Virus record (IMG/VR): IMGVR_UViG_2718217885_000014
Coordinates: 1-52,969 of that record
From: a virus
Taxonomy: Duplodnaviria; Heunggongvirae; Uroviricota; Caudoviricetes
Length of the DNA stretch: 52,969 nt
Direction: 5' to 3' (one strand)
Each line of letters opens with the position of its first letter. Position 1 is the stretch's first letter. The notes under the pieces are model-generated. The model ran no database searches, was not told the DNA's origin, and was given only the letters and a program-made list of their open reading frames with translations. The translations under genes were made by a program, and so were the position numbers. This document shows, piece after piece, positions 27,241 through 52,969 of the stretch.

Positions 27241-27453
27241 ATGTCATCGAAGAACAAAACCAGCAAAACAACAACCCGTAACATCCGTTTTCCCAATCAC
27301 ATGATTGAGCAGATCAATATCGCCCTTGAGCATAAAGGCTCCGGCAACTTTTCGGCATGGGTTATTGAAGCCTGTCGCCGGAGGCTGGCAGCAGACATAA
27401 AATGTGCCCGTCAGTTAACTGTAACAAAGAATGATACACCGTCTGCTCTGTGA
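27241..27453 (+). CDS. small cos-proximal hypothetical protein, possible ribbon-helix-helix DNA-binding fold
   Basis: 70-aa ORF; region NIRFPNHMIEQINIALEHKGSGNFSAWVIEACRRRL resembles RHH/CopG-type proteins; transcribed away from cos. Confidence 0.5.
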   Translation: MSSKNKTSKTTTRNIRFPNHMIEQINIALEHKGSGNFSAWVIEACRRRLAADIKCARQLTVTKNDTPSAL

Positions 27454-27564
27454 TAACTGTTCATATAACCATTTCTTTATATTGCTGAATTTACAAAAAG
27501 TCGCAGTTATTAGTCGTATTTATTCCGAATTGAAATCATCCGTCATATAAAATAAAAAAGAATA

Positions 27565-27572
27565 ACAATAAT
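27565..27572. repeat. 8-bp target-site duplication ACAATAAT (left copy) of IS66-family element
   Basis: ACAATAAT immediately outside the IS terminus; identical copy at 30277-30284. Confidence 0.8.
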
Positions 27573-27602
27573 GTAAGCGGCTCGCCAGAACCGTATTGAT
27601 AT

Positions 27603-29174
27603 TTACTGAGAGGTCAGATCAACTTTCCAGGGCAACAGATCGCGTACCCGGTTTGCCGGCCAGTCCTGGATATGCTCAATGACGTAACGCAGCCATTTTT
27701 CTGGTTCCACATTGTTCAGACGGCATGTGCCGATCAGCGAGTACAACACCGCCGCATGTTCGCCACCGCTGTCGGAACCCGCGAAGAGCCAGTTTTTCCG
27801 GCCTACGGCCACTCCCCGTAAGGCGTTCTCTGCGATGTTGTTGTCGATTTCCACCTGGCCATTACTGCAGTACACGTTCAGGCCATCCCACTGTTTCAGC
27901 AGGTATGCGAACGCTTTTGCCGTATCCGAGTGACGCGACAGTGTTTTCATCTGAGTCTGTATCCAGTCATACAGTGACTGCATCAGTGGCGCAGCTCTGG
28001 CTTTTCTTGCCGCCAGACGCTGTTCTGCTGTACATCCCCGGACTTCTGCCTCTATGGCATACAGTTCACCGATACGCTGCAGGGCTTCCGTGGTGATGTC
28101 GGTGGGCACTCTTGCATGCACATCGTGGATTTTTCTCCGGGCATGAGCCATACACGCGGCTTCCGTTATTCTGCCGGATTCGTATAACACCCGGTAACCA
28201 CCGTAAGCATCGGCCTGAAGCACACCGCTGTAACCGGCCAGATGATTCTGTGGATGGACGCCTTTCCGGTCCGGGCTGTACGCGAACCAGACCGCCGGAG
28301 GCATCTGTGAACCGGCGTTACGGTCATCACGGACGTAGACCCACAGCCGGGCAGTCCTTGTTTTACCACTGCCCGGCTCCTGGACCGGGACGGGGATATC
28401 ATCGGCATGGACTTTACCGGGCATCAGCACATACTGGCGCAGGACGTCATACAGCGGCTCCAGCAGTTCAGCAACGGCACCTGTCCAGCGCCCCAGCGTG
28501 GCGCGGCTCAGCTCCACGCCCTGGCGACGGTATATTTCTGACTGGCGGTATAACGGCAGATGGTCTGCATATTTCCCGGTGACAACATGGGCCAGAAGCC
28601 CCGCTCCGGCATAACTGCGTGCAATGGGTTTTGAAGGTACTGGTGCCTGCACGATATGGTCGCACCGGCAACAGGCCAGTTTCGGACGTTGTGCTTCGAT
28701 AACCTTAAAGGCGCTGCTGATAAGCTCCAGTTGCTCTGACACATCACATCCCAGAGAACTGAGTTCGCCACCACAGGCCGGGCAGCATTCCTCTTCCGGC
28801 CGGATAACCCGGGTTTCACGGGGAAGTGAGGTCGGTAACGGTTTACGGGCAGAAGACTGGCGCAGGGGGGATGGCAGTGCCGGGTCATATTGCTCACCCA
28901 GCGTTTCTGCCATTTCTTCCTGAAGTGCGCTGATTCGCTCCTGTGCTTCCTGTATCTGCCGTTCGGTTTTTGCACGAAGTTTTTCTGAGCTTTTACCGAA
29001 CTGCATACGCTGCAGTTTCGCAACCAGCGCCTTCAGCCGGTTGATTTCGGAAGCATAAGCCGCCACCCGCTGTGAGAGCAGGCGGTTGTATTCAGCCATC
29101 TGGCGGATGGTGTCCTGTTGTGTCTGCAACAGTGCCCGCAGGCGGGCATTCTCATGAGCAAGTGAGGTGTCCAT
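27603..29174 (-). CDS. IS66-family transposase TnpC
   Basis: 523 aa with N-terminal coiled coil, CxxC zinc-finger motifs (CPACGG, CCRCDH) and the conserved IS66 transposase core. Confidence 0.9.
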
Positions 29175-29193
29175 ATCCTCACTTTACATCGGG

Positions 29194-29541
29194 TTATATG
29201 CGGATTCCAGCGCGTTCCGTTCGTTTCGGGTGCTTCCAGTTGATGCCCTCAAGAAGCATGGACAACTGAGCCGGAGTAAGGTGAACCTTTCCATCGCGGG
29301 TGACCGGCCAGACGAAGCGGCCCCGCTCCAGGCGTTTGGTGAAGAGGCACAGTCCGTCGCTGTCAGCCCACAACACTTTTATCTGGTCACCCCGGCGTCC
29401 GCGGAAGATGAACAGATGCCCGGAGAACGGGTCATCCTTCAGGACGTTCTGAACTTTTGATGCCAGGCCGTTAAAACCATTTCGCATGTCGGTGATACCG
29501 GCAACCAGCCAGATACGTGAACCGGCAGGGAGAGATATCAT
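29194..29541 (-). CDS. IS66-family accessory protein TnpB
   Basis: 115 aa, MISLPAGSRIWLVAGITDMRNGFNGLASKVQ..., typical IS66 orf2 product. Confidence 0.9.
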   Translation of the reverse strand: MISLPAGSRIWLVAGITDMRNGFNGLASKVQNVLKDDPFSGHLFIFRGRRGDQIKVLWADSDGLCLFTKRLERGRFVWPVTRDGKVHLTPAQLSMLLEGINWKHPKRTERAGIRI

Positions 29542-30191
29542 CAGTGGCTGCTCCCTTTCATTTCGCGGATAAGTGTCTGTAATAACGCCGGTGTCAGTTC
29601 ACCTTTCAGCCTGAGAGTTCCGGCCGGCAGAACCAGCTCGCAGCACAGACTGTCTGGCAGTGTATTTATCTGTTCAGGTATCTGCACTGGTGCCGGGATT
29701 TTATTATCCGGCTCCGGAGTTAACGTCACGGGAAGTAGCGATGTTTCATGTTCGCCGGGCGGCTGCAGGCCGCCGTTACGCCAGAGATGCCGCCAGTTAA
29801 AGAGCAGGTTATCGTTGATTCCGTTCTCACGAGCTATTTGTGCGACACAGGCACCGGGTAAAAGAGTCCGCTGAACAAGTCTCCATTTAAACTCCGGTGA
29901 AAATCGGTTCCGGCGGGGTTTCTCTGCTTTCACAGGCTGAGTCACGGTCGGGGTTGAAGGATATCGCCCCGGGAAAAGAGCCCGGGCCAGTTGCCCGCAG
30001 GAATATTCACCGGAAAGGGGCCAGTCAGTGAATACCTGGTGAAATCGCCTCACCAGAGAAAAAATGGCGGTTTTGCTGACACCAGTCTGCGCAGAAATGC
30101 GCGGGTACGACAGTGACTCGTCAAATCTCAGCTGTAGCACACGCAGGATCAATTCCGGATTATCTGCCAATACCGCCTTTCGTGCATTCAT
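29541..30191 (-). CDS. IS66-family accessory protein TnpA (orf1)
   Basis: 216 aa; position and size typical of IS66 orf1; stop/start overlap with tnpB. Confidence 0.85.
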   Translation of the reverse strand: MNARKAVLADNPELILRVLQLRFDESLSYPRISAQTGVSKTAIFSLVRRFHQVFTDWPLSGEYSCGQLARALFPGRYPSTPTVTQPVKAEKPRRNRFSPEFKWRLVQRTLLPGACVAQIARENGINDNLLFNWRHLWRNGGLQPPGEHETSLLPVTLTPEPDNKIPAPVQIPEQINTLPDSLCCELVLPAGTLRLKGELTPALLQTLIREMKGSSH

Positions 30192-30276
30192 CTTAAATGT
30201 CCTTTTACTGCGAAAATGGACATTAGTATCGGAAACAGGAAAGGGAGGCGAAAGACGGTTTAAATGATGCGCTTAC

Positions 30277-30284
30277 ACAATAAT
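30277..30284. repeat. 8-bp target-site duplication ACAATAAT (right copy) of IS66-family element
   Basis: Identical to 27565-27572. Confidence 0.8.
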
Positions 30285-30311
30285 AATCTTCTACCCTTAT
30301 CAGTACCTTTA

Positions 30312-30340
30312 CTGCTGTGCTCCAACACAGCAGTTTTTTT
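30312..30340 (+). terminator. rho-independent terminator
   Basis: Inverted repeat CTGCTGTG / CACAGCAG with 6-nt loop followed by seven T at 30334-30340. Confidence 0.55.
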
Positions 30341-30964
30341 GATTATGCTCACATATTTTTCATCCCCACCGCACTGCACATTATAACTGTTGCTTTTCAA
30401 TTCAGGCTTTGTGCAGGTATGTCTGAATCTCCTCCGGGAGAGGTCTTCATCGTTATCAGCCCCAAAACACACCAGCGACACTGACAAAGAGCCTGCGAGT
30501 GCAGTTGCCCCGTTTTCGTTTTATGATGTATTCACCCAGTCAAATAATGAGCAAATTCAATCCATGTCAGACGGCAGAGAATCATAAAATTTAACCATCG
30601 TGCTTACATAAACAATCCGATAAAGACTTAACATACTTAAAATCGCATATTGCATAAGAATAAATAATAAGTCATCAAAAAACATCGGGCAAAACTACCG
30701 CAACTCCAGTTAAAAAGACAATATATTAATCCAGCGACCTCATTTATTATTCAGAAATGCTTAATAATAAGATATTTCCTGTTATTCCTTTATGGAGATC
30801 GGGTAACGGCTCCATGCCAGTCTTGTTGAATGGCTCAAAAAATAAGAGAATAATTCATAACATATATTGTAATTCAGGCTCGGTTATTTCGAATTGAATA
30901 CTTGCATTAAAATCTGATAAAAAATTCGTCATAACAACAACATTCTCTTCTGCATGTGCCATAA

Positions 30965-30993
30965 CCTGCCGTAACAACCCGGCAGGTTTTTTT
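30965..30993 (+). terminator. rho-independent terminator
   Basis: Inverted repeat CCTGCCG / CGGCAGG followed by seven T at 30987-30993. Confidence 0.55.
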
Positions 30994-31193
30994 ATTGAAT
31001 AAATTTCCGGTTTCTTCCACCATCGCACCGGCCAGGCGACTATGAGGGGACAACGCCGCGCTCCGTTAACGCAGTAAACCCCGGTGTGTATCGTTTTTGA
31101 TTATCCCCGCACACTCGCGCAGAGGAGTCTCCCCGTAGGGCTGCGGTCTCTGTTAATGCGGAAATACGGCGACGATACAACGCATTGAAAAAA

Positions 31194-31661
31194 CTATTTC
31201 AGGCACTGAGTACGGATATATTCCTGAAGCGTTCTCAATGCTGCCTGGTCGCTGATGATTCCGTCTCTGATACCGAGAACGTTTCGTCCAGCAACTGGAG
31301 AGAGTTCGACGCTGGCATCATTGCCCACGCGGGCGGTGGCGGTGGCTTCACGCACGGAGCCTGGACAGGTGGCGTTGATCCGCAGGCGCTTACGACCAGC
31401 GGTAACATCAGCACGCAGAGTTTCATTTTCAGCTCTCGCATCGGCTAATTCCCTCGAGTATTTTGCATCGAGCGCAGCAACATCGTGCTGGCGCTGCTGC
31501 ATGTCAGCGATGGTGGCGGTCGCCTGCTTCAGCTCACTGACTTTTTTATCACGCTGTTCTTTGTAGGCGATGGCGTTATCACGGTAATGATTGACCGCCC
31601 ACGACAGGCAGACGATGATGCAGATAACCAGAGCATAAATAATCGCGGCGACTCTGCTCAC
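31194..31661 (-). CDS. Rz: i-spanin Rz
   Basis: N-terminal transmembrane segment [34 protein letters not shown] resembling lambda Rz; probable GTG start overlapping the R stop (GTGA at 31658-31661); track ORF extends to a TTG at 31676. Confidence 0.8.
31235..31426 (-). CDS. Rz1: o-spanin Rz1 lipoprotein, embedded in the +1 frame of Rz
   Basis: [15 protein letters not shown] lipobox signal then proline-rich [10 protein letters not shown], as in lambda Rz1; lies entirely within Rz. Confidence 0.75.
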
Positions 31662-32191
31662 TGATCTATCCCCCAACAGGCTAATGCGCTTTCCTGGTCA
31701 CGACGAATAACCTGTCCATAGCAGTTATTTGAACGTATGCGGCAATCGCGCCCACCATCTTTTATCCACCAGCGAATCGCCTCGCATGCACCCTTACGAT
31801 CACCGGCATTCAGCCGCTTATAAAACGTCGACGGGAAACACTTACCGGGGCCAATGTTATAGGGACAAAATGACGCTATACCCGCTTTCTGTGGTTCGGT
31901 CAGTGGTACTTTAATATTGCGTTCCACCCATGCCAGCGCCTTATCACGTTCAATAGCGTTAACCTGGTCGCATTTTTCCTTCGACAGCTTCATTCCCGGT
32001 ATGACGGGCTTACCATCCACCATTGTGGCACCACGACAGATGGTCCATATACCGGAACCATCGCGGTATGCCGTAGTGTGGTTACCCTCTTTTTCATCCA
32101 GAAACTGGTCAAGTATTTGAGGAGCAGACGCGCCTGCAGCAATCAGCGCCAGAACGGCAGCCGACAGGCCGTATCTGATTTTTGCGTTCAT
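31658..32191 (-). CDS. R: phage lysozyme R (T4-lysozyme family), probable SAR endolysin
   Basis: 177 aa; weakly hydrophobic Gly/Ala-rich N-terminus ([19 protein letters not shown]) then E-D-T catalytic region ([20 protein letters not shown]); resembles K-12 prophage lysozymes RrrD/RrrQ from memory. Confidence 0.85.
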
Positions 32192-32254
32192 GGATATTTA
32201 TCAGGATTTATCGGTTTCTGCCCACGGACAGGTTTATCTGTTCCGGTCAGTGGC

Positions 32255-32605
32255 TTAAGGTTGTGATTCCGGAGGAGTCTTCAGAGAACCAGTAATTCTT
32301 CCTGGTAGCTCTCCTTTGTAGGTTATCCACACATTCTGCGCCTCTAAAATTACGGGGCGCTTTTCCGGCGACTGCTCATCCCCTTCACATAACCCGGCAG
32401 CAACATCCAGGAAGACCTGTCTGATGCGCCTTCTGGCTGCTGCTTCATAAAACTCCAGCGCGGCACCTTCAACACGGTCCAGCGAGATGTCCAGGTCAAA
32501 AATTTCACCGTCAAAGCGTTTTTTGTCCCGTAACGCTAAAGTTACCGTAACTTTATTCTCAAAATTGCGGATCCCTTTCACAATCAGTTCATAGTTTTGA
32601 GTCAT
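32255..32605 (-). CDS. hypothetical protein between holin and lysozyme (YdfR-like)
   Basis: 116-aa ORF occupying the position of ydfR in the K-12 Qin lysis cassette; function unknown. Confidence 0.6.
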   Translation of the reverse strand: MTQNYELIVKGIRNFENKVTVTLALRDKKRFDGEIFDLDISLDRVEGAALEFYEAAARRRIRQVFLDVAAGLCEGDEQSPEKRPVILEAQNVWITYKGELPGRITGSLKTPPESQP

Positions 32606-32609
32606 TGAA

Positions 32610-32825
32610 TTACTCTCCCCGTGCAGCCTTACGCTTGTCTTCTCTGATTTTGAAGTACAGATTTGTCAGATAAGTCAGGAAGCCCAGAACCAGACTCCCC
32701 AGTACACCAATCGCAGCCCACTGTGACGGACTGACCTGATCAAGCCACTGTAAAAACCAGTAGCCAGCACTGCCTGCGGAGGTGCCGTAGGCAATGCCCG
32801 TTGAAATTTTGTCCATGGATTTCAT
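32610..32825 (-). CDS. S: class II holin (phage 21 S-type pinholin) with dual-start motif
   Basis: 71 aa from [63 protein letters not shown], near-identical to phage 21 S; Met1-Lys-Ser-Met4 dual start at 32814-32825. Confidence 0.85.
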
Positions 32826-32936
32826 AACCCCCACCTCGCAGATGCGGGCGTTGTGTAATGGAAACAAAAAAGGCCACCAGCGGCCCGTAAAAACAACACC
32901 CAATCAAAGGCACCCGCAGATGCCTTTTGCGTGGTG

Positions 32937-33089
32937 TTATTCAGATTTGCGCAGTAAAGGCCGGAGCACGACCAGCACCATCACCACCAGCACACCATCT
33001 GCCAGTACCGACATCAGCCGTCCGGTAAAATCCACCACCACTACCAGAAACAGCAGGATGGCAGCCAGCACAAGGCGCGCACTTTTCAC
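32937..33089 (-). CDS. putative small two-transmembrane protein (not in ORF track)
   Basis: In-frame GTG at 33087-33089 overlapping the TGA stop of the upstream TerB-like gene (GTGA); encodes about 50 aa with two hydrophobic stretches (LVLAAILLFLVVVV and VLADGVLVVMVLVVL); internal ATG at 33012-33014 is an alternative start (25 aa). Confidence 0.3.
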   Translation of the reverse strand: MKSARLVLAAILLFLVVVVDFTGRLMSVLADGVLVVMVLVVLRPLLRKSE

Positions 33090-33511
33090 AGGTACTGCTC
33101 CAGTGGTAGCTGCAGCGCCTGAGCAATTTTCTTCAGTTGCGCTTCTTCATCCGGGCCAATGCCGTCCTGGTCAGCGATATCCAGACACAGGCACAGCACA
33201 TTAACTGCGTCATCAGTACCGGCAACATCAGCCAGCTGACGAAGGGCTTCAGCATTGGCAGAGCGCGGCGACGCTTCATAACGGGCGCGGATATTTGCAC
33301 TCATTTGTGCAATCTCACCGGAGAACGGCGCAAAGGCAGGAAGTGCTGCAATGGTTTTCTCCAGTACCGCGATTTCTTTCGCGTCACAGGTGTCGTCAGC
33401 GTATGCAATGGAATACGCACCCCAGACGGTCGCCTCCACTGCGTCGCGGTTCTCCATCTTCTTCACTTCGGTAATGGCCTTGCGAGTTTTCTTTTTGAAA
33501 ATACCAAACAT
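33086..33511 (-). CDS. TerB-like (tellurite-resistance TerB / DjlA N-domain fold) protein
   Basis: 141 aa with TerB-like pattern (acidic helices, LDIADQDGIGPDEEAQLKKIAQALQL); located between the late tRNA genes and the holin. Confidence 0.55.
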   Translation of the reverse strand: MFGIFKKKTRKAITEVKKMENRDAVEATVWGAYSIAYADDTCDAKEIAVLEKTIAALPAFAPFSGEIAQMSANIRARYEASPRSANAEALRQLADVAGTDDAVNVLCLCLDIADQDGIGPDEEAQLKKIAQALQLPLEQYL

Positions 33512-33685
33512 CGTGACTTTTCCTTTTAGTGGGTGAGCCTGCGCCCGGGGGTGACCAGCCCACAGAGAAAGTCACACTGACCATCCCGTAAGCTCACCCC
33601 TGAAAGGCTCTGTGGTTTTTGATATGCGCCGGGCGTGGCGCGGATACAAAAAAGGCCCGCCAAAGCGAGCCGGGAAAAATAAGTC

Positions 33686-33762
33686 TGGCGCGTTGTACTG
33701 GATTCGAACCAGTGACCGATTGCTTAGAAGGCAATTGCTCTGTCCGACTGAGCTAACAACGC
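33686..33762 (-). tRNA. tRNA-Arg (anticodon UCU)
   Basis: 77-nt cloverleaf folded by hand: acceptor GCGTTGT/ACAACGC, D-arm GCTC/GAGC, anticodon stem ATTGC/GCAAT with loop CTTCTAA, T-loop TTCGAAT, encoded CCA. Confidence 0.8.
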
Positions 33763-33775
33763 ATGATGCAGATAA

Positions 33776-33856
33776 TGGACCGCCATCGAGGACTCGAACC
33801 CCGCACCAACAACCCTGTTATCGTGTCGTCTGCTCTTCCTGATGAGCTAATGGCGG
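33776..33856 (-). tRNA. tRNA-like gene with atypical anticodon arm (anticodon not assignable; possibly degenerate)
   Basis: Acceptor CCGCCAT/ATGGCGG, D-arm GCTC/GAGC, T-arm CGGGG-TTCGAGT-CCTCG and CCA are canonical, but 27 nt lie between D and T arms and no standard 5-7-5 anticodon stem-loop could be folded by hand. Confidence 0.45.
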
Positions 33857-33863
33857 TATGTTA

Positions 33864-33939
33864 TGGTGGCCCTTGCTGGATTTGAACCAGCGACCTGGCG
33901 ATTATGAGTCGCTCGCTCTCACCACTGAGCTAAAGGGCC
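33864..33939 (-). tRNA. tRNA with CAU anticodon (Met, or Ile2 if lysidine-modified, as ileZ of phage 933W)
   Basis: 76-nt cloverleaf: acceptor GGCCCTT/AAGGGCC, D-arm GCTC-AGTGGTGA-GAGC, anticodon loop CTCATAA, T-loop TTCAAAT, CCA. Confidence 0.8.
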
Positions 33940-33979
33940 GGGCGCAGGATAATAACGGTACGTAACTAATTCTGCAATA

Positions 33980-35038
33980 TCATCCGTTCTGACTGACTAA
34001 ATCCTGAACTTCCTTGACCGTCTGCTCAAAACGCTCAGTCTCCAGCTCAACGCCAATTGCACGACGTCCCAGCGCCATCGCTGCTTTGACCGTCGAACCC
34101 GACCCCATGAAAAAATCTGCAACCAGATCTCCCGGACGACTGCTTGCGCTGATTATCTGCTGCAACATTTCTGCCGGTTTTTCGCACGGATGTTTCCCGG
34201 GATAGTACTGCACCGGTTTATGCATCCACACATCGGTGTACGGCACCTGCACAGTCACACCGAAATACCGCCGCAAATTTTTATATTCTCTCAGCAGTTC
34301 CGTATACTGCCGGTTCAGTTCACTGTATGTGCTGACCAGCTGGTGGTGTGGCTGCTCCAGTTCACCGCGCTGATGTTTTTCTGCTGCAACACGCGCAAAC
34401 AACGCCTGCAATTTGTTGTAATCAGCTTCGTTCGGTAACTGCCACTGACTGGTACCAAACCAGTGCGAAGCCATGTTTTTCTTTCCGGTGGCTTCCGCTA
34501 TCTGTTTTGACGTTATTCCCAGTTCGGCACGAGCATCCCTGAAATACGATATCAGCGGTGCCATTATGTGCTGTTTGAGTTCCCTTTCTTTTGCCGCATA
34601 GCCGTCACTTTTGCCGCGATATGGCCCCTGGTAATGTTCAGCAAACAGAACGCGCTCTGTGGCAGGAAAATATGCGCGCAGACTTTCTTTATTACACCCA
34701 TTCCAACGTCCAGACGGCTTCGCCCAGATGATATGGTTAAGCACGTTGAAACGTTCACGCATCATGATCTCAATATCAGATGCCAGGCGATGCCCACAGA
34801 ACAGGTAAAGGCTTCCGGCAGGTTTCAACACCCGCCAGAACTGGGCCAGACAGTGGTCCAGCCACTTAAGATAATCTTCGTCCCCTTTCCACTGATTGTC
34901 CCAACCGTTGGGTTTCACCTTGAAGTAAGGCGGATCGGTAACAATCAGGTCAATGGAATCATCAGGCAGGGACTGAATAAAATGCAGGCAATCAGCGTTG
35001 ATTAAATCAACACTGTTTATTTTTACAGTATTTTTCAT
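33980..35038 (-). CDS. DNA methyltransferase (N6-adenine/N4-cytosine family, beta-class), no adjacent endonuclease
   Basis: 352 aa; catalytic DPPY motif near N-terminus (LIVTDPPYF) and AdoMet-binding FxGxG near C-terminus (DFFMGSGST). Confidence 0.85.
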   Translation of the reverse strand: MKNTVKINSVDLINADCLHFIQSLPDDSIDLIVTDPPYFKVKPNGWDNQWKGDEDYLKWLDHCLAQFWRVLKPAGSLYLFCGHRLASDIEIMMRERFNVLNHIIWAKPSGRWNGCNKESLRAYFPATERVLFAEHYQGPYRGKSDGYAAKERELKQHIMAPLISYFRDARAELGITSKQIAEATGKKNMASHWFGTSQWQLPNEADYNKLQALFARVAAEKHQRGELEQPHHQLVSTYSELNRQYTELLREYKNLRRYFGVTVQVPYTDVWMHKPVQYYPGKHPCEKPAEMLQQIISASSRPGDLVADFFMGSGSTVKAAMALGRRAIGVELETERFEQTVKEVQDLVSQNG

Positions 35039-35188
35039 GGATCAGTAAGCGTAACTCTGGTAGGCTCACTCTGCTTTTGCGCTAAAGCAGTGGGCCGTGG
35101 TTCGCTTGTGACCAGTAAGCATGAGCGAATGGCTGGCAGGTGCTACCAACACCCACCAGCCGCCCATTTTCACAGCAGGAAACCGCCA

Positions 35189-35392
35189 TTACTGGCAGCG
35201 TCTGAATTTATTCCCGTACCCGCCGTTATCCTTCGCCAGACCCGCCAGAACTAACTGAGTCAGTATTAACTGGCACCGGACTTCGCTTACTCCGGTAGTT
35301 CTCGTCATCATGCGTGGCGTTACCCACTTGTCAGCAGGTAAGAAATGAAGGACTGCGGCGGCGGTTTCTGTCATATCTTGCTGTTTTAGCAT
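35189..35392 (-). CDS. hypothetical small protein
   Basis: 67 aa from ATG at 35390-35392 (MLKQQDMTETAAAVLHFL...); track ORF extends 28 codons further upstream, probably non-coding. Confidence 0.4.
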   Translation of the reverse strand: MLKQQDMTETAAAVLHFLPADKWVTPRMMTRTTGVSEVRCQLILTQLVLAGLAKDNGGYGNKFRRCQ

Positions 35393-35512
35393 GTTTTTTC
35401 CCTTCTGGTTAACATGACATACCAATAACTCTTGTCTAAAAAGCCAGCAAGATAAAAAGTCAGTATTCACGACCACCAGCGTGTTTACTGTACTGCACCA
35501 AGTTTACAGGTA

Positions 35513-35540
35513 CAAAAAAACCGCTCAGCGGCGGGTTTAA
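35513..35540 (-). terminator. candidate rho-independent terminator (possible tR' equivalent)
   Basis: Minus-strand GC-rich hairpin (CCGC-TGA-GCGG core, extendable) followed by seven U (plus-strand A-run 35514-35520). Confidence 0.4.
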
Positions 35541-35588
35541 GTTGTGTGGCGAAGTAACCACTCTTAACAGCATATTTGATTTTTTACG

Positions 35589-35617
35589 ATTGTAAACGGT
35601 TGATTATTCATCTCCAA
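35589..35617 (-). promoter_or_regulatory. candidate sigma-70 promoter (possible late promoter PR' equivalent)
   Basis: Minus strand: -35 TTGGAG (35612-35617), 17-nt spacer, -10 TACAAT (35589-35594); about 60 nt upstream of the hairpin/U-run at 35513-35540. Confidence 0.3.
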
Positions 35618-35661
35618 TAAAAATAATTGTGTAGGTATGCCCTTAACAATGGATAAGAAAC

Positions 35662-36108
35662 ATGAATAAAATGACTGTATTATTACTTAGCGCAACTATC
35701 ATTTCAGGTTGTACTTCTTCCGTACCATTGATAAAGAAAACTCAATCAGGAAAACCTGAGGGGGTTTATCAAAATACGACAAAAGATAAAGTCAAAGATG
35801 CCCTTGTGAATTACTGCAATAGTAGAGGGTTGATAATTTACAACGCGGATAACAGCAGTGTTATATGTGGTAAAGAACTGGAAGGCGGGTCTGCTGTTTT
35901 TGGACAAATGTTAATCGGCAATGCCTATTCAACAACCCCGGTATCAAAAGTCAGATTTACTATCGCTCAAGTTAATAACGATACAAAAGTGTGGGCCGAT
36001 ATGTGGATGGAAACTCAAATGGCAATGGGGCAAGTACAACAAATGGCTATAACAGACAACGCAAGCAAAAACACTATCCAACAACGTCTTGATGAATTAA
36101 AACCTTAA
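35662..36108 (+). CDS. lipoprotein of unknown function (moron)
   Basis: 148 aa with lipobox (LLLSATIISGC); on the strand opposite to all flanking phage genes; AT-rich upstream region, hairpin downstream. Confidence 0.75.
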   Translation: MNKMTVLLLSATIISGCTSSVPLIKKTQSGKPEGVYQNTTKDKVKDALVNYCNSRGLIIYNADNSSVICGKELEGGSAVFGQMLIGNAYSTTPVSKVRFTIAQVNNDTKVWADMWMETQMAMGQVQQMAITDNASKNTIQQRLDELKP

Positions 36109-36128
36109 GTAAATTAATTAAATAAAAT

Positions 36129-36151
36129 GGGGAGAAATAAATCGACTCCCC
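36129..36151. terminator. hairpin between lipoprotein gene and Q (likely terminator, mainly for minus-strand transcripts)
   Basis: GGGGAG-N11-CTCCCC stem-loop; on the minus strand it is followed by an A/U-rich tract (AUUUUAUUUAAUU). Confidence 0.4.
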
Positions 36152-36193
36152 ACACATTAAACTGATTCAATTACCCCCTCAATAAGAGGTCTT

Positions 36194-36574
36194 CTAACGA
36201 TCCATCTCTAGCTCAATTTCTAACATCATTAACATGCCATCAACTACACCTTCAGCCTTTTGCAATAAACGCCCAACCCAGCAATCAGAACGCCCATGTT
36301 TACGGGCAAGCGCCATAAACGTCATACCACCTACATAATAATCCACTAATAAATCGTGCAAATCGCTGTTGTTCTTTTTCAGGCGAGCCATGCACCCACA
36401 AATGATCATCGCGTCATCGTCACAACATTGCGGGCGGGATTTTACTTTTGAAGGGATTAGTCCTTTAAATCCTGCAGCAATAGACGACCAGGTGACATCC
36501 TCGTGATTATTTGCCACCCATGCCCCCCAACGTTCAAGAACCATTTGAATATCACGCATCAACTTTCTCCACAA
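36194..36574 (-). CDS. late-gene antiterminator Q (QuuD/phage 82 Q-like)
   Basis: 126 aa; from [76 protein letters not shown] it matches K-12 QuuD from memory. Confidence 0.85.
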
Positions 36575-36576
36575 AA

Positions 36577-37566
36577 TCAGGCCAGAACGCCAATTGCCAG
36601 CGCACGATCGATAAAACGAAATATCAGCTCCAGCTGGGAGCCATACTTCTCTTCAAATGCCACGGTATCCGCATGCAGCTCGTCGTGATGCTTTCTGCAC
36701 AAAGGCAACACAAAAAGGTCATGCGCTTTTGTTCCCATTCCACCCTGACCGTGACCTATCAGGTGGTGGGGATCATCAGCAGGCTTTCCACAACATGCAC
36801 ACGGCTGTGTCTTAACCCAGCGCGTGTACTTTTCATTAACCCAGCGGCGACGTTTGGGGCGTAACATAAAAGACTCCGGCGACTCCGGATCCACTTTCAG
36901 CGCCAGCACCTTTTTCGCTTTATCCTGGATGATGCTGGTGGCAGGAACCGAAGGCACAAGGTCACACTCCCGGGTGACAGACGGCACAACAGGCGTCGGT
37001 AATCTCAGTGCCTTACGGGCTGCACTTTCCGGTAAGGCATCCGCCAGGTCATTACGAGCCAGCCACCAGCATAGTTCCGGCATTGTCACAACGTGACTGT
37101 CATCAAAACCGAGATCCCGACGCACGACAGATAACACCCACCGGGCACAGTTATCCGTTGCCATTGATTCCAGCCGTTCCGTGAACTGATCGCGCAGCTG
37201 GTTATCGCAGTGCCAGCACAGACGGATTGCGCCCGGAGCGTGTCGCATTGTGGTCATATTCTCGCTGTGCCAGTCGGAATGAGGCCACTGGCAGCCTTTT
37301 TCACGAAGTAACCAGCGTTCAAGACATTCCACGCCACCAGCACGACGGATTACCGCCTCATTGCGGAACATAGCCCGAACGGCAGGATCATCCGCCAGCG
37401 GTTGTGATGCCGCCGGAACGGCACCACTGGCAAAAGATGAATAACGTTCCGGCTCAGGCTCCAGCAGGACACGCCCCTGCATAAACAGGGGCATCAGTTC
37501 TGAACCGGGTCTGAACAATACGATCCCCATACGTGGGGCAATTTCAGGGGTCAGTAGTGCTCTCAA
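36577..37566 (-). CDS. DUF968-domain protein (YdfU-like)
   Basis: 329 aa with C-terminal Cys/His-rich region ([43 protein letters not shown]); nin-region position. Confidence 0.7.
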
Positions 37567-37575
37567 CGTAGAACC

Positions 37576-38091
37576 TCACAGCACAATCTGTTTCAGTTTC
37601 TGTACCGCTTTCCCCATATCCGCCATAGCATCAACAAACTCATCAAATTTACGACTTGCCATTCCATACGCCTGGAGGATTTCCAGTTTCAGAGGATCCA
37701 GTTGCTTTTTAATTTCCGCACGATCATTAAATTTCTTCTCTGCTTCTTCCGCAGCCCTGATCAGCTCCTCAGCATGCCTGCGTAATTCATCCGGAGTAAC
37801 GGTCTTTTTAATCACAACGGGTTCCTCTGTTTTTACTGGTATTTCACTATTTACTGCCTGATGTCCAAATTTAGGATGATGTAACGTTGTAGTTCTTCCA
37901 TCATTCACAACGACCAGAAGTCCACTGTCGCGGATAATGCCAATGAGTATCTCCTTATCCCTTTTATTCAGCAGACTGTACGCCTGCACTTTCTGTGATA
38001 TCTGGGTCAGTGTTGCGCCTTCCGGCATTCGTTCAACAAAACGTTTAACCCTGGATAAAACTGGCTGCAGATGGGGTGGTGTAATTCTCAT
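37576..38091 (-). CDS. hypothetical protein (N-terminal winged-helix-like, C-terminal coiled coil)
   Basis: 171-aa ORF, tightly packed in the operon; no recognisable family by eye. Confidence 0.55.
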   Translation of the reverse strand: MRITPPHLQPVLSRVKRFVERMPEGATLTQISQKVQAYSLLNKRDKEILIGIIRDSGLLVVVNDGRTTTLHHPKFGHQAVNSEIPVKTEEPVVIKKTVTPDELRRHAEELIRAAEEAEKKFNDRAEIKKQLDPLKLEILQAYGMASRKFDEFVDAMADMGKAVQKLKQIVL

Positions 38092-38106
38092 GCTCCACGC
38101 CTCCCA

Positions 38107-38922
38107 TCAGTGAACGGTATCGAGCAGCTTTAACAGCTCAGGGAATCGGGATTCGAAGAAATGCGGCTGCGTCTCGCGCGGATTTGCAGGACTGGTGATG
38201 TTCTTGCCGAACATGCAGCCTTTCGCCGTCAGCGACCAGAATTTTTTGATGTTGTTAATCGCGGTACGGCTGTATCGTTCGCGTTGTTCAACGATCCCCA
38301 GCTTCGCCATCTGGTGATATGCCTGATTAGCCGTCAGGCGGATACCATACTGCTTCAGCAGTGCACTCAGCGACAGCGTAGGGCGGCTTGAACCATCTGG
38401 CGCATCAGCAGGTGCATCAATGGCATAGATCGGCATAAGTTCAGGAAGACCTGCTACCTTTGATAATTTCTGGTATGCACCAAGTTTCGAGGAGTTTGAC
38501 AGATTTAGAGTCTTTGCTGCTGATTCAAGCAGAATGACCCCGGATTTAATTTTGTCGGATGTGGTTTCTTCTGGTGATGAATTATGAAGCGCATCAAAAG
38601 TACGTATCACTTTTAAGCTGAATGCCGGGCTGATCCACATTGCATATGCATAGACCAGCTCTTTACAGACATACGTCCCACCATTGCGCCCCTGAATGGT
38701 GATGACAGGAATACTACGGGAATCTCCCGTAGTTTCTTCTTCCAGTAATTCCACAAGAGCCTTCGTTTCAGGACGACGCATAAACTCGTGAACTTCCAGC
38801 GAACGGGAGGAGCGATTCTCACCAGCGGCAAGAAGAGCAGCTTTCTGAAGGTCGTTAAGACAGTAGTTAGATTCAAAGTACTGGCGCACAGAAACGCCAT
38901 CAATTACAAGCAACTGATTCAT
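38107..38922 (-). CDS. KilA-N domain protein
   Basis: 271 aa from ATG at 38920-38922 with GGAGA Shine-Dalgarno; N-terminus MNQLLVIDGVSVRQYFESNYCLNDL resembles KilA-N domain; track ORF starts 32 codons upstream without a Shine-Dalgarno. Confidence 0.65.
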   Translation of the reverse strand: MNQLLVIDGVSVRQYFESNYCLNDLQKAALLAAGENRSSRSLEVHEFMRRPETKALVELLEEETTGDSRSIPVITIQGRNGGTYVCKELVYAYAMWISPAFSLKVIRTFDALHNSSPEETTSDKIKSGVILLESAAKTLNLSNSSKLGAYQKLSKVAGLPELMPIYAIDAPADAPDGSSRPTLSLSALLKQYGIRLTANQAYHQMAKLGIVEQRERYSRTAINNIKKFWSLTAKGCMFGKNITSPANPRETQPHFFESRFPELLKLLDTVH

Positions 38923-39202
38923 TGGTTTCTCCACAAATTTCGGGACTGCACTCCCTTTTCGTTGATGCAAGATGAACTTACTGCGATTTTTAATAGTTAT
39001 CAAGGATACACTGTTCATAAATACAGTATCTTTAACGAGGTAATACCCAAATTTAGGGTGTTGCTCAATTCCGTTACCGAGTTGCTAATTTGCAACTCGC
39101 TTTTTCGTACTTACTGATAGTGATCTCGACCTTACCTTCCGGGATAACCGGTCCCCACTCCACCAGCATTCTTTTCACCTGTCTGTCGTCTTCCCACACC
39201 CC

Positions 39203-40539
39203 ATAAGCGCTAACTTAAGGGTTGAACCATCTGAAGAATGCGACGCCTCGGTGCCTCGTTAAGACGATGCCTCGCGTTCTTCAATTGCGTTTTGTAGGCT
39301 GTCAGGGATACTGTCCCACGAATGGCCACCTGTAAGCTCCAGATGACCATTTTTGTTATTCTCCACAACGAGTTAGTTCTTCTTTTCGGATCCGGCACTT
39401 CTGGGGGGGAAATCCAGCGATGGCTGGATTATGTCGTCAATTAAAAATGCGGCGAGTAGATTAGCAAATATCCACGCTTTCGCGAGTTCAGGTTCCTTTG
39501 CACGCAAAGCATCCAGGTGCAGCAAACTTTTGAGCCGCTTAAAAGCCAGTTCAATTTGCCATCGCAGACGGTAACAATCAGCCACTTGCTCTGCTGAATA
39601 TTCATCTTCCGGTAATGATGTTAGCAATAGCACATGGCCCGCTGCTTCCAGCGTTTCCGCCTGAACTACTCGTCCTTTTCGACGATTCTCGCTGAGCAGT
39701 CGGGTTTTACTGATTAATGCTTTTTCGGGAGGAAGTGATACGGCAATGAGACGTGCCGGAAAGGGAGCTCCGGCTTTTTTATTACCTGAATTGCCTATCA
39801 TTACAGTGGTTTCACCGTTCTTACCGCAATCCAGCCCGCGCAGAAAACCCATCATGTCAAAGCGCATTCCTTCTGCAGTTAACCAGCGCAATCCTCGCCA
39901 GTGAACCCGGACGATATAATCAGCTTCTCCAAAAGCAAGTGAGCGGATACATTCGGGACGCGAACCGAATCCCCGGTCAGCAATGCGTATCTCGTCTGCC
40001 GTTTGCGCAAATCGGTCCAGCCGTTCAGCGTCTCTGCTGTCGGTTAGCTCAAAATCAGTGAACTGACAGGTATGAGGATCATATCCCATATGTAGTCGCC
40101 ATTCAGCGCTGCCGCCCCCGGGCGCACTGATTGCTGTTCCATCGACAAGACGCAATCTCTTTCCGCTTGTACAACCCGTAACTGCGGCGCGTACAGCAAG
40201 TGTTTGTGCGGCAAGTATGCCAAACCAGTCGGCGGCATTCCGCAGCCGCTTCAGGAGAGCCACGTCAGATAATGTTGCAACGTCATGGAGCTGAGCCCAT
40301 GCAGTGACTTCACGTAATGACATCCCCCCGGGGCCGTAAGCCAGCCCCAGACGTAGCAGAGTTGCAGCATCACGAATTTCGCGGCGGCGGGTTAGAGCCC
40401 CGGCATTACGTGCCGAAGTATCCAGTTCTTCGGGCTTACCAATATGGGCCAGAATTGCTGACCAGTTATCGTGAGAGTAATTCATCGGCACGTTAAATCA
40501 TATCAGGCGTAATACCACAACCCTTAAGTTAGCGCTTAT
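39203..40539 (-). mobile_element. IS4-family insertion sequence (about 1.34 kb)
   Basis: About 22-bp terminal inverted repeats (ATAAGCGCTAACTTAAGGGTTG at 39203-39224, CAACCCTTAAGTTAGCGCTTAT at 40518-40539); flanked by 11-bp direct repeat TCCCACACCCC (39192-39202 and 40541-40551); one transposase ORF inside. Confidence 0.85.
39373..40485 (-). CDS. IS4-family DDE transposase
   Basis: About 370 aa; C-terminal YRLRWQIELAFKRLKS signature typical of IS4-family transposases. Confidence 0.8.
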   Translation of the reverse strand: MNYSHDNWSAILAHIGKPEELDTSARNAGALTRRREIRDAATLLRLGLAYGPGGMSLREVTAWAQLHDVATLSDVALLKRLRNAADWFGILAAQTLAVRAAVTGCTSGKRLRLVDGTAISAPGGGSAEWRLHMGYDPHTCQFTDFELTDSRDAERLDRFAQTADEIRIADRGFGSRPECIRSLAFGEADYIVRVHWRGLRWLTAEGMRFDMMGFLRGLDCGKNGETTVMIGNSGNKKAGAPFPARLIAVSLPPEKALISKTRLLSENRRKGRVVQAETLEAAGHVLLLTSLPEDEYSAEQVADCYRLRWQIELAFKRLKSLLHLDALRAKEPELAKAWIFANLLAAFLIDDIIQPSLDFPPRSAGSEKKN

Positions 40540-40814
40540 GTCCCACACCCCCGCGTGGGTCAGGGCGTCAAACAGCGCCTTGTTATAGTTGTCCAGATCG
40601 CGGATCCGGTTATCCGGAGGAAACAACACGATCTCCACTGAAGCAGGTGCCGACGTTGGTTTCGGCAGACGACGTAACTGCTCAACTATTGCTGCGCACG
40701 CCGCGCTCTGGAATTTTCGCCCCGCCGCGCTTATCAGGCTCTTACCAGCAAACGCCCCTTTGTTGGGGTGTCGCCAGTACGTGTTCACGCTGGGCGGGAA
40801 AGGCAGTATTAGCT

Positions 40815-41141
40815 TCATACTTTCAGGCCCCTCTCATGTAACCAGTGGGTTGCACGCAGCCTGGCGTTTTCCTCACCGGCAAGCAGTGAGCGGATAATCC
40901 CGACCGCCTCGCTGTCGTCGTCCTTCACCGCGGTATGAAGCGTTATCCCCCGGGCCACACCACGCTTTATCGTGATGACGCCTTTTTTCTCCAGTGCGCG
41001 AAGATGCTCCACCGCTGCATTCACTGAACGGTATCCCAGCATGGTTGCCACCTCCTGATTGGTTGGCGGGAAGCCACGTTCTTTCTGGTAAGAAATCAGC
41101 ATATCCAGCACCTGCTGCTGGCATTGAGTTAACGTCGTCAT
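40815..41141 (-). CDS. LexA DNA-binding-domain-only protein (winged helix, no S24 peptidase domain)
   Basis: 108 aa from ATG at 41139-41141 (MTTLTQCQQQVLDMLISYQKERGFPPTNQEVATMLGYRSVNAAVEHLRALEKKGVITIKRGVARGITL), resembling the LexA N-terminal domain; no C-terminal protease domain. Confidence 0.6.
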   Translation of the reverse strand: MTTLTQCQQQVLDMLISYQKERGFPPTNQEVATMLGYRSVNAAVEHLRALEKKGVITIKRGVARGITLHTAVKDDDSEAVGIIRSLLAGEENARLRATHWLHERGLKV

Positions 41142-41629
41142 TAAGCCCCCACGTAATTGCCTGACAGATACCACTCTTCACCCGATGCAGCGCGCTTGCT
41201 GCTTTTCCGTAAGCACCGCTCACGACGCGCCAGAAAATTGTTTCGTTCTGGCTTGGAGTGGCTTTCACGGAATGCCGCCATCCACACCGTTGCAGCACGA
41301 CGAAATAAGCCCCTGGACTCCAGTTCTTCCGCCTGGCGGGTCAGGCACAAAATCACCCGTGGATCGTTAGTGCCGACATAGAAATTGCGCACAGGTCTGG
41401 TTTCACGAACTGGTTGTGGTTCCGGCTCCTGCGCTCTCTCAGTCAGGCGTGGGAAATGTCTGCGTGTATCTCCTTCACAACGGTGAGCCACACGCCCACT
41501 CTGACGTAACTTGCTTGCTGACTGCAGAACGCGCTGTCGTGAGTAACCAGCAAAAGCATCCGCAATGTCTCCTGAAGTACACCCCGGATGGGCTTCAATG
41601 AATTTCTGAACTTCATTCAAAAGACTCAT
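41141..41629 (-). CDS. PerC-family-like regulator with N-terminal winged-helix region
   Basis: 162 aa; central motif ELESRGLFRRAATVWMAAF resembles the PerC/Pch signature from memory; occupies the slot after the replication initiator where lambda has P. Confidence 0.5.
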   Translation of the reverse strand: MSLLNEVQKFIEAHPGCTSGDIADAFAGYSRQRVLQSASKLRQSGRVAHRCEGDTRRHFPRLTERAQEPEPQPVRETRPVRNFYVGTNDPRVILCLTRQAEELESRGLFRRAATVWMAAFRESHSKPERNNFLARRERCLRKSSKRAASGEEWYLSGNYVGA

Positions 41630-42450: not shown

Positions 42451-42671
42451 GCTGCACCTCCGAGATGCTTCATGTTTTTTCCGGAGCGAAAGGCTATAAG
42501 CGGCATACTGACGCGGTAATTACGGCCCAGCGGTTCACAAATCACCTTCTGACATTCACGGTCAACCAGGCTAACACGTAGAACATGCCCTGCTGGCGTG
42601 GTGTACCACTGACCGGGGAGAGGACAACGGAAAGTCTGATTGGTAAATCGTTTGAAAATATTCCGGATCAT
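42447..42671 (-). CDS. hypothetical small protein
   Basis: 74-aa ORF whose stop overlaps the start of the replication gene by 4 nt. Confidence 0.45.
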   Translation of the reverse strand: MIRNIFKRFTNQTFRCPLPGQWYTTPAGHVLRVSLVDRECQKVICEPLGRNYRVSMPLIAFRSGKNMKHLGGAA

Positions 42672-43831
42672 TTACGCCCCCTTACCTCTGAAGAGTTCAG
42701 CGACGAATGAATAAGACGGGCAAGAAATGCCGCATCGTTAATTCGGTCATACAGACTTACAGCCAGCGGTGATTCAGCTTTTTCCAGCATGGGATAAAGC
42801 TGCTGCAACCAGACCTGATGAATTGATGAAATGTAGGAATAGAGTACGCTGGCGTTATGTGCAACGTCGCTCGGTACAGCGGGCTTTGAAAGCTGTTTCT
42901 CCATCTGGTTAAAGGCATTGATGTATGCCTCCTTGAACTGGGCTGCACGTTTGCCAGTGAAGCCCATTGCCAAGAACGCGAAGCCGTCGCGGGTGATGTG
43001 GTAGCAAGGAAGTTTGCGAGTACCGCCGTTGGGCTGGTGTACCCAAATTGATGTCTCCGCAAAATTGCGGGCACAAAACTCTGGAGAACAATCCAAAATG
43101 CGGATCTTTTTCAGAACATCGTCATGACGTTTAGAGAAGAAGTCAGCAACAGCCAAAGAAGATGTAACAGCCTGACCATCAACGATGGCAATTTCAGGTT
43201 GAGAGAGGGTTGGGAGAGTAGTCATGGTGACAGCCCCGGTAGTCAGTTTTTCAGAAAACTCACCACATGGGACGCCAATCACAGAGGTGGTGAGACGTAC
43301 AGGGTTGGCGTTACCGGAGACTACCGAACCCGGCCCGACCGAAGTCGGCCCTGTACGCCCCACCATAATTTGGGCGTAGCAATGCTCATGACACGAAAAA
43401 ACCGCATGAGCGCGGTTATGCTCAGTAATCAATTTCAGGACGCCAATCCCGGCACCCGTTTTATAAGGTGCCTGAACAGTGTAACGTCCCGGAATGGCAG
43501 AATCAATGTGCTGGTGGTCCTTCACACTCAACAAAATCACGCCTGAATTTCCACAAAGGACTAAAGCACTCATGCGGGTAGTCTTTGCGAAGATAGATAA
43601 CGCGCTGTGTATCTGGTTCCCAACGAATAACATGGACATAAAGCCCTCTTCCGTCACGAAACCAGCGGTTAAGTTCCTGCACAACTCGCCCCCCACAGTC
43701 AGGTAAAGTTCTCTGTGGTTACTTACAGCCAGGTGATTTGGTAATCTGCATTCATGCCGTAACAACAGGAGTTCAGCGACGCTGACCACCAGCTGTTGCG
43801 ACAAACGGTTATTTGCCGTTAAACTGTTCAT
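42668..43831 (-). CDS. Rha-family phage regulatory protein with about 200-aa N-terminal extension (possible alternative start at 43225)
   Basis: 387-aa ORF; residues from about 203 (MTTLPTLSQPEIAIVDGQAVTSSLAVADFFSKRHDDVLKKIRILDC) resemble the Phage_pRha domain; start ATG overlaps the stop of the upstream gene, supporting the long form; ATG at 43223-43225 would give 185 aa. Confidence 0.6.
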   Translation of the reverse strand: MNSLTANNRLSQQLVVSVAELLLLRHECRLPNHLAVSNHRELYLTVGGELCRNLTAGFVTEEGFMSMLFVGNQIHSALSIFAKTTRMSALVLCGNSGVILLSVKDHQHIDSAIPGRYTVQAPYKTGAGIGVLKLITEHNRAHAVFSCHEHCYAQIMVGRTGPTSVGPGSVVSGNANPVRLTTSVIGVPCGEFSEKLTTGAVTMTTLPTLSQPEIAIVDGQAVTSSLAVADFFSKRHDDVLKKIRILDCSPEFCARNFAETSIWVHQPNGGTRKLPCYHITRDGFAFLAMGFTGKRAAQFKEAYINAFNQMEKQLSKPAVPSDVAHNASVLYSYISSIHQVWLQQLYPMLEKAESPLAVSLYDRINDAAFLARLIHSSLNSSEVRGRK

Positions 43832-51715: not shown

Positions 51716-52969
51716 TTACGCACGAATGGTGTAATCACCAATGCCGATCCACTTGTAAGTGGTCAGTGCTTCCAGCCCCATTGGGCCACGCGCGTGGAGT
51801 TTTTGTGTGCTTACCGCCACTTCCGCACCCAGACCAAACTGGCCGCCGTCGGTAAAACGCGTAGAGGCGTTAACGTAAACAGCGGACGAATCCACTTCGT
51901 TAACAAAACGCTGGGCGTTGCGCATATCGCGGGTCAGGATCGCATCGGAGTGTTGTGTGCCGTGTTCACGAATATGGGCGATGGCATCGTCAAGATCGCT
52001 GACGATTTTGACGTTCAAATCTAATGACAGAAACTCATCGTCATACTCTTCGGCTTTAACAGCAACCACCTTCGCAGGGCCTGCCTGCAACTGCGCCAGT
52101 GCAGCTGCATCTGCGTGTAATGTCACGCCGCTTTCCGCCATTTGTTTGCTTAATGCGGGCAGGAAGCTATCGGCGATGTTTTTATTCACCAGCAACGTTT
52201 CAACCGTATTACATGTGCTCGGACGCTGAGTTTTCGCGTTGACGATCACTTTTAATGCTTCAGCGATCTCTACACTTTCATCAACGTAAATATGGCATAC
52301 GCCTATACCACCTGTGATCACCGGGATTGTCGACTGTTCACGGCACAGTTTATGCAAACCAGCGCCACCACGCGGGATCAGCATGTCGATGTATTTATCC
52401 ATACGCAGCATTTCACTGACCAGCGCACGGTCAGGATTATCAATCGCCTGCACGGCACCCGCCGGTAAGCCACAGGATTTCAGGGCGTCCTGAATCACCG
52501 CCACCGTTGCCGCGTTAGTGCGACAGGTTTCTTTGCCACCACGCAGGATCACCGCATTACCGGTTTTCAGGCACAGCGAAGCGACATCAACCGTCACGTT
52601 CGGGCGCGCTTCATAAATCACGCCAATCACCCCCAGCGGCACGCGACGACGCTCAAGACGCAGGCCGCTGTCCAGTACGCTGCCATCGATTACCTGCCCC
52701 ACCGGATCGGCGAGGTTACACACCTGGCGCACATCATCGGCAATGCCTTTCAGCCGTGCGGGCGTCAGTGCCAGACGGTCAAGCATCGCTTCGCCAAGGC
52801 CATTGGCACGCGCGTCAGCAACATCCTGGGCGTTAGCGTTGAGGATGATTTCGCTTTGTGCTTCCAGTTCATCGGCGATTTTTTCCAGCACGCGATTTTT
52901 TTCGCGGCTGGAGAGTTGCGCTAATTTATACGAGGCTTGCTTCGCGGCAATGCCCATTTGTTCCAGCAT
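51716..52969 (-). CDS. proA: gamma-glutamyl phosphate reductase ProA
   Basis: 417 aa, [58 protein letters not shown] matches E. coli ProA; ATG is the last codon of the window. Confidence 0.95.

Follow-up and report, generated by a model that had tools for sequence, protein, structure and literature searches.

IS186 inserted into a RusA-family resolvase gene of a lambdoid Escherichia coli prophage

What separated the two halves of a resolvase gene, and what did the break cost the prophage that carries it? The question is raised by the viral sequence IMGVR_UViG_2718217885_000014, whose 52,969 nucleotides we analysed in full and refer to hereafter as the window. In it, a reading frame related to rusA, which encodes a Holliday-junction resolvase, stops inside a mobile element of about 1.3 kb and continues on its far side. 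The initial annotation proposed that an IS4-family insertion sequence (IS) had split the gene, leaving an 11-bp target duplication. Our data identify the element as IS186, and we are highly confident that its insertion into the prophage rusA gene best explains the locus.

The inserted DNA is bounded by perfect 23-nt inverted repeats (CATAAGCGCTAACTTAAGGGTTG; coordinates of the features are given in Table 1). Even when up to three mismatches were allowed, these two arms were the only matches to the repeat in the window, against an expectation of 0.00 in shuffled sequences. The sole long open reading frame (ORF) between the arms lies on the minus strand (39373-40485, or to 40491) and has the same orientation as rusA and the early operon. 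Alignment to the annotated IS186A of E. coli K-12 MG1655 revealed identity at 1341 of 1341 nt (100%), and the encoded 370-aa protein is identical to K-12 InsL1. This transposase matched Pfam DDE_Tnp_1 (PF01609) with E=1.6e-26 and the NCBIfam model for IS4 family transposases (NF033592) with 133.2 bits (cutoff 115), while RefSeq labels it 'IS4-like element IS421 family transposase'. The IS4 family has been defined by, among other traits, a Y-(2)-R-(3)-E-(6)-K signature in region C1 and a table of conserved ends, in which 5'-CAT termini belong to the IS231/ISH8-type subgroups (PMC2266710). InsL carries this signature at residue 305 (YRLRWQIELAFKRLK). Furthermore, the element has a single transposase ORF with a DDE domain and no frameshift, terminal inverted repeats that both begin with CAT, and a target duplication of about one helical turn (10 bp, 11 at most). 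The inserted element is IS186, a member of the IS4 family, and its length of 1339 bp agrees with the ~1.34 kb estimated beforehand.

Both ends of IS186 are directly abutted by copies of an exact direct repeat, TCCCACACCCC, so that the repeats lie precisely at the IS termini, next to the inverted repeats, as had been claimed. On the upstream side, 92 native rusA codons are followed by 43 nt of IS sequence and a stop at 40498, which yields a 106-aa product with an IS-encoded tail of 14 residues (DISANLRVVVLRLI). Beyond the element, the frame resumes at the second repeat copy with its codon phase relative to the repeat unchanged, and runs from 39199 down to the stop at 39074, as anticipated; this 3' fragment has neither a start codon nor a ribosome-binding context of its own. 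The insertion interrupts codon 93 of the 131-codon gene, after W92 and two codons before a DD pair. Deletion of 1349 bp, that is, IS186 and one repeat copy, rebuilt a single 131-aa ORF, in line with the proposed reconstruction. The correct excision is 39203-40551 or, equivalently, 39202-40550 or 39192-40540. The interval originally given for it, 39203-40550, is 1348 bp long and therefore one base short, leaving an extra C and a frameshift. Similarly, the repeat that the upstream frame enters is the 'right' one in window coordinates only, since by convention the position of the transposase start makes it IRL.

Excision of the element restores a recognizable resolvase. The reconstructed ORF scored 55.4 bits against Pfam RusA (PF05866; cutoff 22.8), covering profile positions 1-123 of 124, and aligned with the RusA structure 1Q8R (E=7e-18) and with 2H8C over residues 3-120, which bears out its predicted relationship to RusA. 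In the K-12 protein, D70, D72, K76 and D90/D91 have been reported to be critical for catalysis and metal binding (PMC1636454). Their equivalents in the restored ORF are D74, D76, K80 and D94/D95, and both the R-D-L-D-N..K and the W-x-D-D elements are kept. On the other hand, the score against the K-12-type NCBIfam model NF007305 was 71.2 bits, far below the cutoff of 200, and equivalence to the K-12 protein is not supported. These matches assign the interrupted gene to the RusA family of Holliday-junction resolvases, as a distant member that is not of the K-12 type. The 106-aa product retains the counterparts of D70, D72 and K76 but has lost the C-terminal third and, from the metal-binding site, the D90/D91 pair, as D94/D95 are left on the 3' fragment beyond IS186. 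Because the break severs the catalytic DD motif and this C-terminal third, the rusA::IS186 allele is very probably null for Holliday-junction resolution. Inactivation of a recombination function, as first proposed, would thus hold for this gene copy. In the two sibling genomes that carry the same junction, 09-00049 and OkiPb01715, the function is not lost to the cell: each has, in another prophage, an intact rusA module of 99.1% identity whose target site is unoccupied. Public annotation deals unevenly with the two remnants. In RefSeq, the fusion product (WP_065225513.1; window 40498-40818) bears the ordinary name 'RusA family crossover junction endodeoxyribonuclease' and no pseudogene mark; for the 3' fragment, 09-00049 has no annotation, and OkiPb01715 has a partial pseudogene ('missing N-terminus').

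We then compared the locus with related prophages devoid of the element. E. coli N96, from a Tibetan pig in China, has this prophage too, likewise at thrW by proA, with no IS186 in rusA. The restored gene and N96 rusA (WP_032240286.1) are identical at 396 of 396 nt, which is the outcome of the comparison with IS-free relatives that had been suggested. The window is 99.97% identical to N96 over 30277-39202 (8.9 kb), and the alignment resumes collinearly from 40541; in N96 coordinates, the two alignments overlap by exactly the 11 bp of the repeat. This joining of the flanks to an N96-identical empty site, with an 11-bp overlap at the junction, indicates a simple insertion. Further empty sites are plentiful. 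A 952-bp query found the site uninterrupted in 175 complete E. coli genomes (at least 80% query coverage), uninterrupted homologues of 97-98% identity occur in PhiR49_1, SfIV, mEp460 and several Stx2a phages, all cultured or sequenced, and the unoccupied site TCTTCCCACACCCCCGCGTGGG is present once in each of the intact alleles of loci L002, L006 and L007.

The target itself is uncommon. IS186 is reported to insert almost exclusively at 5'-GGGG(N6/N7)CCCC-3' (PMC5009759), whereas the window site reads GGGG-GTGTGG-GAAG on the rusA sense strand, with one perfect arm and no match at any of the four positions of the other. For comparison, we inspected IS186 ends in the K-12 copies and in a scan of species-representative genomes. 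Five other full copies have a duplication and can be read into the flank on either side, and all of them sit at GGGG-N6-CCCC, with a 10-bp duplication of the form GG-N6-CC. A further full copy (L014) has a visible flank that fits the motif, another (L002) has two unrelated flanks, and most single IS186 ends also conform. The half-site is therefore unusual yet does not contradict simple transposition, since the duplication is perfect.

The same half-site bears on the length of the duplication. Eleven base pairs is the maximal repeat, and its final C, at 39202, also opens the 23-nt inverted repeat; because this base belongs to both, the duplication may be of 10 or 11 bp. At canonical sites, the bases flanking the duplication are G and C, the same as the terminal bases of the IS, which renders the duplication length inherently ambiguous. 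At the window site, the plus-strand base preceding the duplication is T, and the terminal G at 40540 must consequently belong to IS186. By symmetry and by the CAT ends of the family, a 1339-bp element with a 10-bp duplication is more probably correct than the 11 bp first reported, which stand as a maximum of a genuine direct repeat. If so, this half-site insertion would fix the true terminus of IS186.

The junction is not private to the window. It recurs in the complete genomes of 09-00049, from lettuce in the USA and described as serogroup O168 (PMC7175801), and of OkiPb01715, from bovine faeces in Japan, each with only three single-nucleotide polymorphisms (SNPs) relative to the window in the surrounding 25.4 kb. 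Seventeen public contigs, of which 15 exceed 1 Mb, encode exactly the 106-aa fusion product. In addition, 295 index blocks hold a 'partial' RusA of 92 aa truncated exactly at the junction base, and 23 of 24 such contigs that we read have the gene context of the window. These contigs are what short-read assemblies of the window's lineage would produce, and the allele is probably present in hundreds of draft assemblies. A broader reading, in which all 'partial RusA' entries of 90-96 aa mark IS junctions, was rejected: only the 92-aa class ends at the junction, and the partials of 90 aa stop where paralogous alleles differ by a G/T polymorphism (nt 270), unrelated to the IS. One contig, L037 (GCA_025045895.1), also ends exactly at the junction base, differs from the allele at seven positions including G270T and has a Dam methylase gene upstream; it could represent an independent IS186 insertion at the same site or an assembly fork.

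Since the junction is common to several genomes from two continents, it is an inherited lineage marker and not a strain-private event. Neither the IS, nor the duplication, nor the gene halves carry any mutation, and in the absence of private mutations only 'young' can be said of the age of the insertion. The initial annotation, which called it recent and precisely datable, was right on the former and overreached on the latter: the event cannot be dated from sequence, and the allele is found in at least two other complete genomes and on those 17 contigs. The window does not coincide with either sibling. It retains 711 bp (26862-27572) that are deleted in both 09-00049 and OkiPb01715, and differs from these complete genomes at 77 positions within 1-26861, in two tail-region patches, and by three SNPs elsewhere. 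Judging by the retained 711 bp and the tail-region differences, the window is a third sibling strain, distinct from the other two; the possibility that it derives from the 09-00049 chromosome was discarded on the 711 bp, the 77 differences and the three SNPs. Its exact configuration was not found among complete RefSeq E. coli genomes.

These observations can be accommodated in a single scenario. A copy of IS186, moved by its DDE transposase InsL, would have entered codon 93 of rusA in a lambdoid prophage residing at thrW by proA. IS4-family elements are described as cut-and-paste transposons, and this mechanism presumably operated here. Staggered cleavage of the target followed by gap repair would then have generated the duplication of 10, possibly 11, bp and left the gene in two, one piece encoding residues 1-92 plus 14 IS-encoded residues and the other a promoterless 3' piece with no start. 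The event appears young, yet older than the split of the strain lineage found in the USA and Japan. RusA/Rap-type resolvases of lambdoid phages are accessory functions, and the host has RuvABC. Given this dispensability, the host system and the intact paralogue in the sibling genomes, the insertion was probably near-neutral. Two points weigh against this scenario, namely, that the target lacks half of the published IS186 motif, which is a preference and not a definition of the element, and that loss of function is deduced from homology.

Other origins of the junction account less well for the data. IS elements are a classic source of misassembly, and IS186 is multicopy, with a median of three matching places per genome and up to 23, so that an assembler might have misplaced the repeated IS into rusA. 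The likelihood of such an artefact is practically nil, given that the identical junction with its perfect duplication occurs in two independently produced complete genomes and on 15 contigs longer than 1 Mb, that short-read contigs with the window's gene context stop exactly at the junction base, and that a misjoin would not yield a target duplication. Alternatively, recombination between two IS186 copies, by deletion or inversion, might have joined rusA pieces whose flanks were never a true pre-insertion site. Loci with such a history seem to exist, as the other flank of the rusA-side IS186 in L030 and L034 is GGGTAAAACCCC followed by cas3, and the copy in L002 has two unrelated flanks. In the window, the flanks carry the same 10/11-bp repeat and join to an empty site identical to that of N96 in a segment collinear over more than 20 kb, and no empty-site allele differing from the joined flanks was found, which makes recombination extremely unlikely as the origin of this junction. 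Simple transposition of IS186 into rusA remains the preferred explanation.

What the insertion did to the prophage is a separate matter. The 106-aa protein might be kept as a catalytically dead junction binder with a dominant-negative or regulatory role, comparable to RusA D70N, which binds DNA without cutting it (PMC1636454); it still has the N-terminal two thirds, with the first two acidic residues and the basic stretch that precedes D74. It is doubtful whether such a fragment folds stably, because the missing third, to judge by the position of the break, probably holds core beta strands of the published fold (PMC1636454), and the allele is simply young, with no sign of selection on the fragment. 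We regard this role as very unlikely. A polar effect, which would add to the transposition scenario and not replace it, fares somewhat better. The rusA gene lies between the replication genes and the antiterminator gene Q on one strand, within the early-right operon upstream of Q, and polarity on Q is therefore conceivable: the 1.35-kb IS, placed upstream of the KilA-N, DUF968 and Q genes, would lower Q expression and help to lock the prophage in the chromosome, which would account for the persistence of the allele in a lineage. A pattern of progressive decay fits this idea, with a second IS before the terminase genes and, in the siblings, the loss of 711 bp directly upstream of the small-terminase gene. 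Our consensus scan of IS186, on the other hand, found no outward promoter and no convincing intrinsic terminator on the operon strand, where the sole match was one 5-bp stem, and a neutral allele can persist in a clone without selection; polarity is thus conceivable but improbable. The same low likelihood attaches to the wider proposal that the IS186 and IS66-family insertions were non-neutral, polarity on Q and the late genes having immobilised the prophage, which a widespread O168-related lineage then kept. That IS186 can use a target with a single GGGG/CCCC arm is more likely to be true than this immobilisation. Insertion of IS186 by simple transposition, probably near-neutral, is the reading that we retain.

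Table 1. Positions of the insertion, the interrupted gene and neighbouring features in the window.
Feature	Position	Strand	Remarks
IS186 (IS4 family)	39202..40540	-	1339 bp between the outer ends of the 23-nt inverted repeats
Inverted repeat, transposase-proximal end (IRL by convention)	40518..40540		rusA 5' frame enters here
Inverted repeat, transposase-distal end (IRR by convention)	39202..39224		
insL, transposase gene	39373..40485	-	370 aa, single ORF, DDE domain
rusA 5' fragment	40541..40818	-	start at 40818; native codons 1-92 and 2 bases of codon 93
rusA 3' fragment	39074..39201	-	codons 93-131 and stop, plus duplicated codons 90-92
Target-site duplication, copy by rusA 5' fragment	40541..40551		TCCCACACCC(C)
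Target-site duplication, copy by rusA 3' fragment	39192..39202		its final base (39202) is also the first of the inverted repeat
LexA-DNA-binding-domain gene	40815..41174	-	upstream neighbour of rusA
KilA-N domain gene	38107..38922	-	downstream neighbour of rusA; followed by DUF968 and antiterminator Q genes
IS66-family element (tnpA, tnpB, tnpC)	27573-30276		2704 bp; GTAAGCG... ends; absent from the near-identical N96 prophage

The genes around the insertion are arranged as a transcription unit. The stop of the LexA-DNA-binding-domain gene overlaps the rusA start, which places both in the same operon, and the KilA-N, DUF968 and Q genes are all downstream of the IS in this early-right operon. 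The rest of the prophage had been described as intact, which the IS66-family element disproves. This second insertion sits between the lysis genes and the small-terminase gene and is flanked by an 8-bp duplication, ACAATAAT, at 27565-27572 and 30277-30284. Directly between it and the small-terminase gene is the 711-bp stretch absent from the siblings, whose loss looks like an IS-adjacent deletion, perhaps one that removed the region where cos would lie.

Several further features of the prophage were recorded. Differing RefSeq annotation had led us to suspect a nonsense mutation in a Rha-like gene; this was discarded, as the ORF (42668-43831) is intact and differs from that of N96 only by L263W. 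Within its 5' part, Rfam models detect a C4 antisense RNA (82 bits; 43283-43370) and an isrK RNA (60 bits; 43395-43471), and the annotation of this stretch differs between the two RefSeq records. The arrangement suggests that the 387-aa 'Rha family / Phage_ASH' ORF is an over-extended call on a P1-type c4-icd-ant antirepressor module. A tRNA cluster lies at 33686-33939, upstream of the lysis genes, in which ARAGORN calls tRNA-Arg(TCT) and tRNA-Met(CAT), while RefSeq assigns the CAT tRNA as tRNA-Ile and places between them a third, 'tRNA-OTHER', that ARAGORN does not call. An Rfam IS009 RNA at 3971-4168 (120.6 bits; gathering score 117) adjoins a truncated tail-fibre-assembly gene. With respect to N96, the prophage has about six SNPs in 20 kb (30277-51700) and the adjoining chromosomal proA (51719-52969) 76 differences in 1.25 kb, a disparity indicating that either the prophage or the chromosome segment recently moved between backgrounds. 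A second att site was sought in the window and none was found, the best repeat being a 12-mer.

IS186 copies in other arrangements were also seen. In L030 and L034 (3279-4617 and downstream), IS186 starts at the rusA junction and is followed by GGGTAAAACCCC and cas3 instead of the rusA 3' fragment, which suggests that two IS186 copies recombined, with a large rearrangement. L032 has an IS66-family transposase gene in place of the far end of IS186. In L002 (4623-5961; eight OkiPb strains), IS186 is flanked by GGGGTTTACCC and GGGTATCACCCC with no duplication, its immediate neighbours being a truncated replication gene and an integrase gene, and the yjjG-side prophage there keeps an intact rusA; this looks like an IS186-mediated deletion or recombination. 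Exact IS186 ends were further found at L010-L012, L014-L016, L019, L022-L024 and L026-L028, mostly on very short contigs and several with the flanks of K-12 IS186 copies. The assemblies in this L010-L028 set are labelled Marinobacter, Labrys, Acidobacteriota, Prevotella, Actinomyces, Kocuria, Bradyrhizobium, Streptosporangium, Corallococcus and others, and the IS186 ends in those labelled as other than E. coli are most likely E. coli contamination.

Collectively, these data describe an event that is real and ordinary: neither the IS nor the kind of prophage gene is new, and public annotation already records it. It brings no new biology. Accessory genes are routinely disrupted by insertion sequences as prophages decay. 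Its value is rather practical. The rusA::IS186 allele is a clean lineage marker with a defined junction that can be typed by PCR, and it provides one natural case of IS186 at a half-match to an otherwise very strict target motif. It also illustrates how such events are concealed in draft assemblies and by automatic annotation, with a 106-aa fusion labelled as a normal RusA and hundreds of 'partial' RusA entries that are contig ends.

Finally, the locus can be set against known systems. The element is alike in all respects to IS186 (synonym IS421), of which K-12 carries copies IS186A, IS186B and IS186C: sequence, InsL, inverted repeats, CAT ends and the ~10-bp duplication. It differs from these copies in its place of insertion, where the target has GGGG on one side and GAAG instead of CCCC on the other. 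The closest prophage, that of N96 at thrW, shares the gene, its neighbourhood and the integration site and lacks both the IS186 in rusA and the IS66-family element, and the rusA homologues of PhiR49_1, SfIV, mEp460 and the Stx2a phages are 97-98% identical and likewise free of IS186. With the RusA of the cryptic K-12 prophage DLP12 (1Q8R, 2H8C), the restored protein has the catalytic elements in common, and both genes lie in an early operon upstream of Q, although the window gene is a distant member of the family. The K-12 rusA gene is silent and is activated by IS2 or IS10 insertions upstream of it; in the window, by contrast, the gene is destroyed by an IS within its coding sequence.

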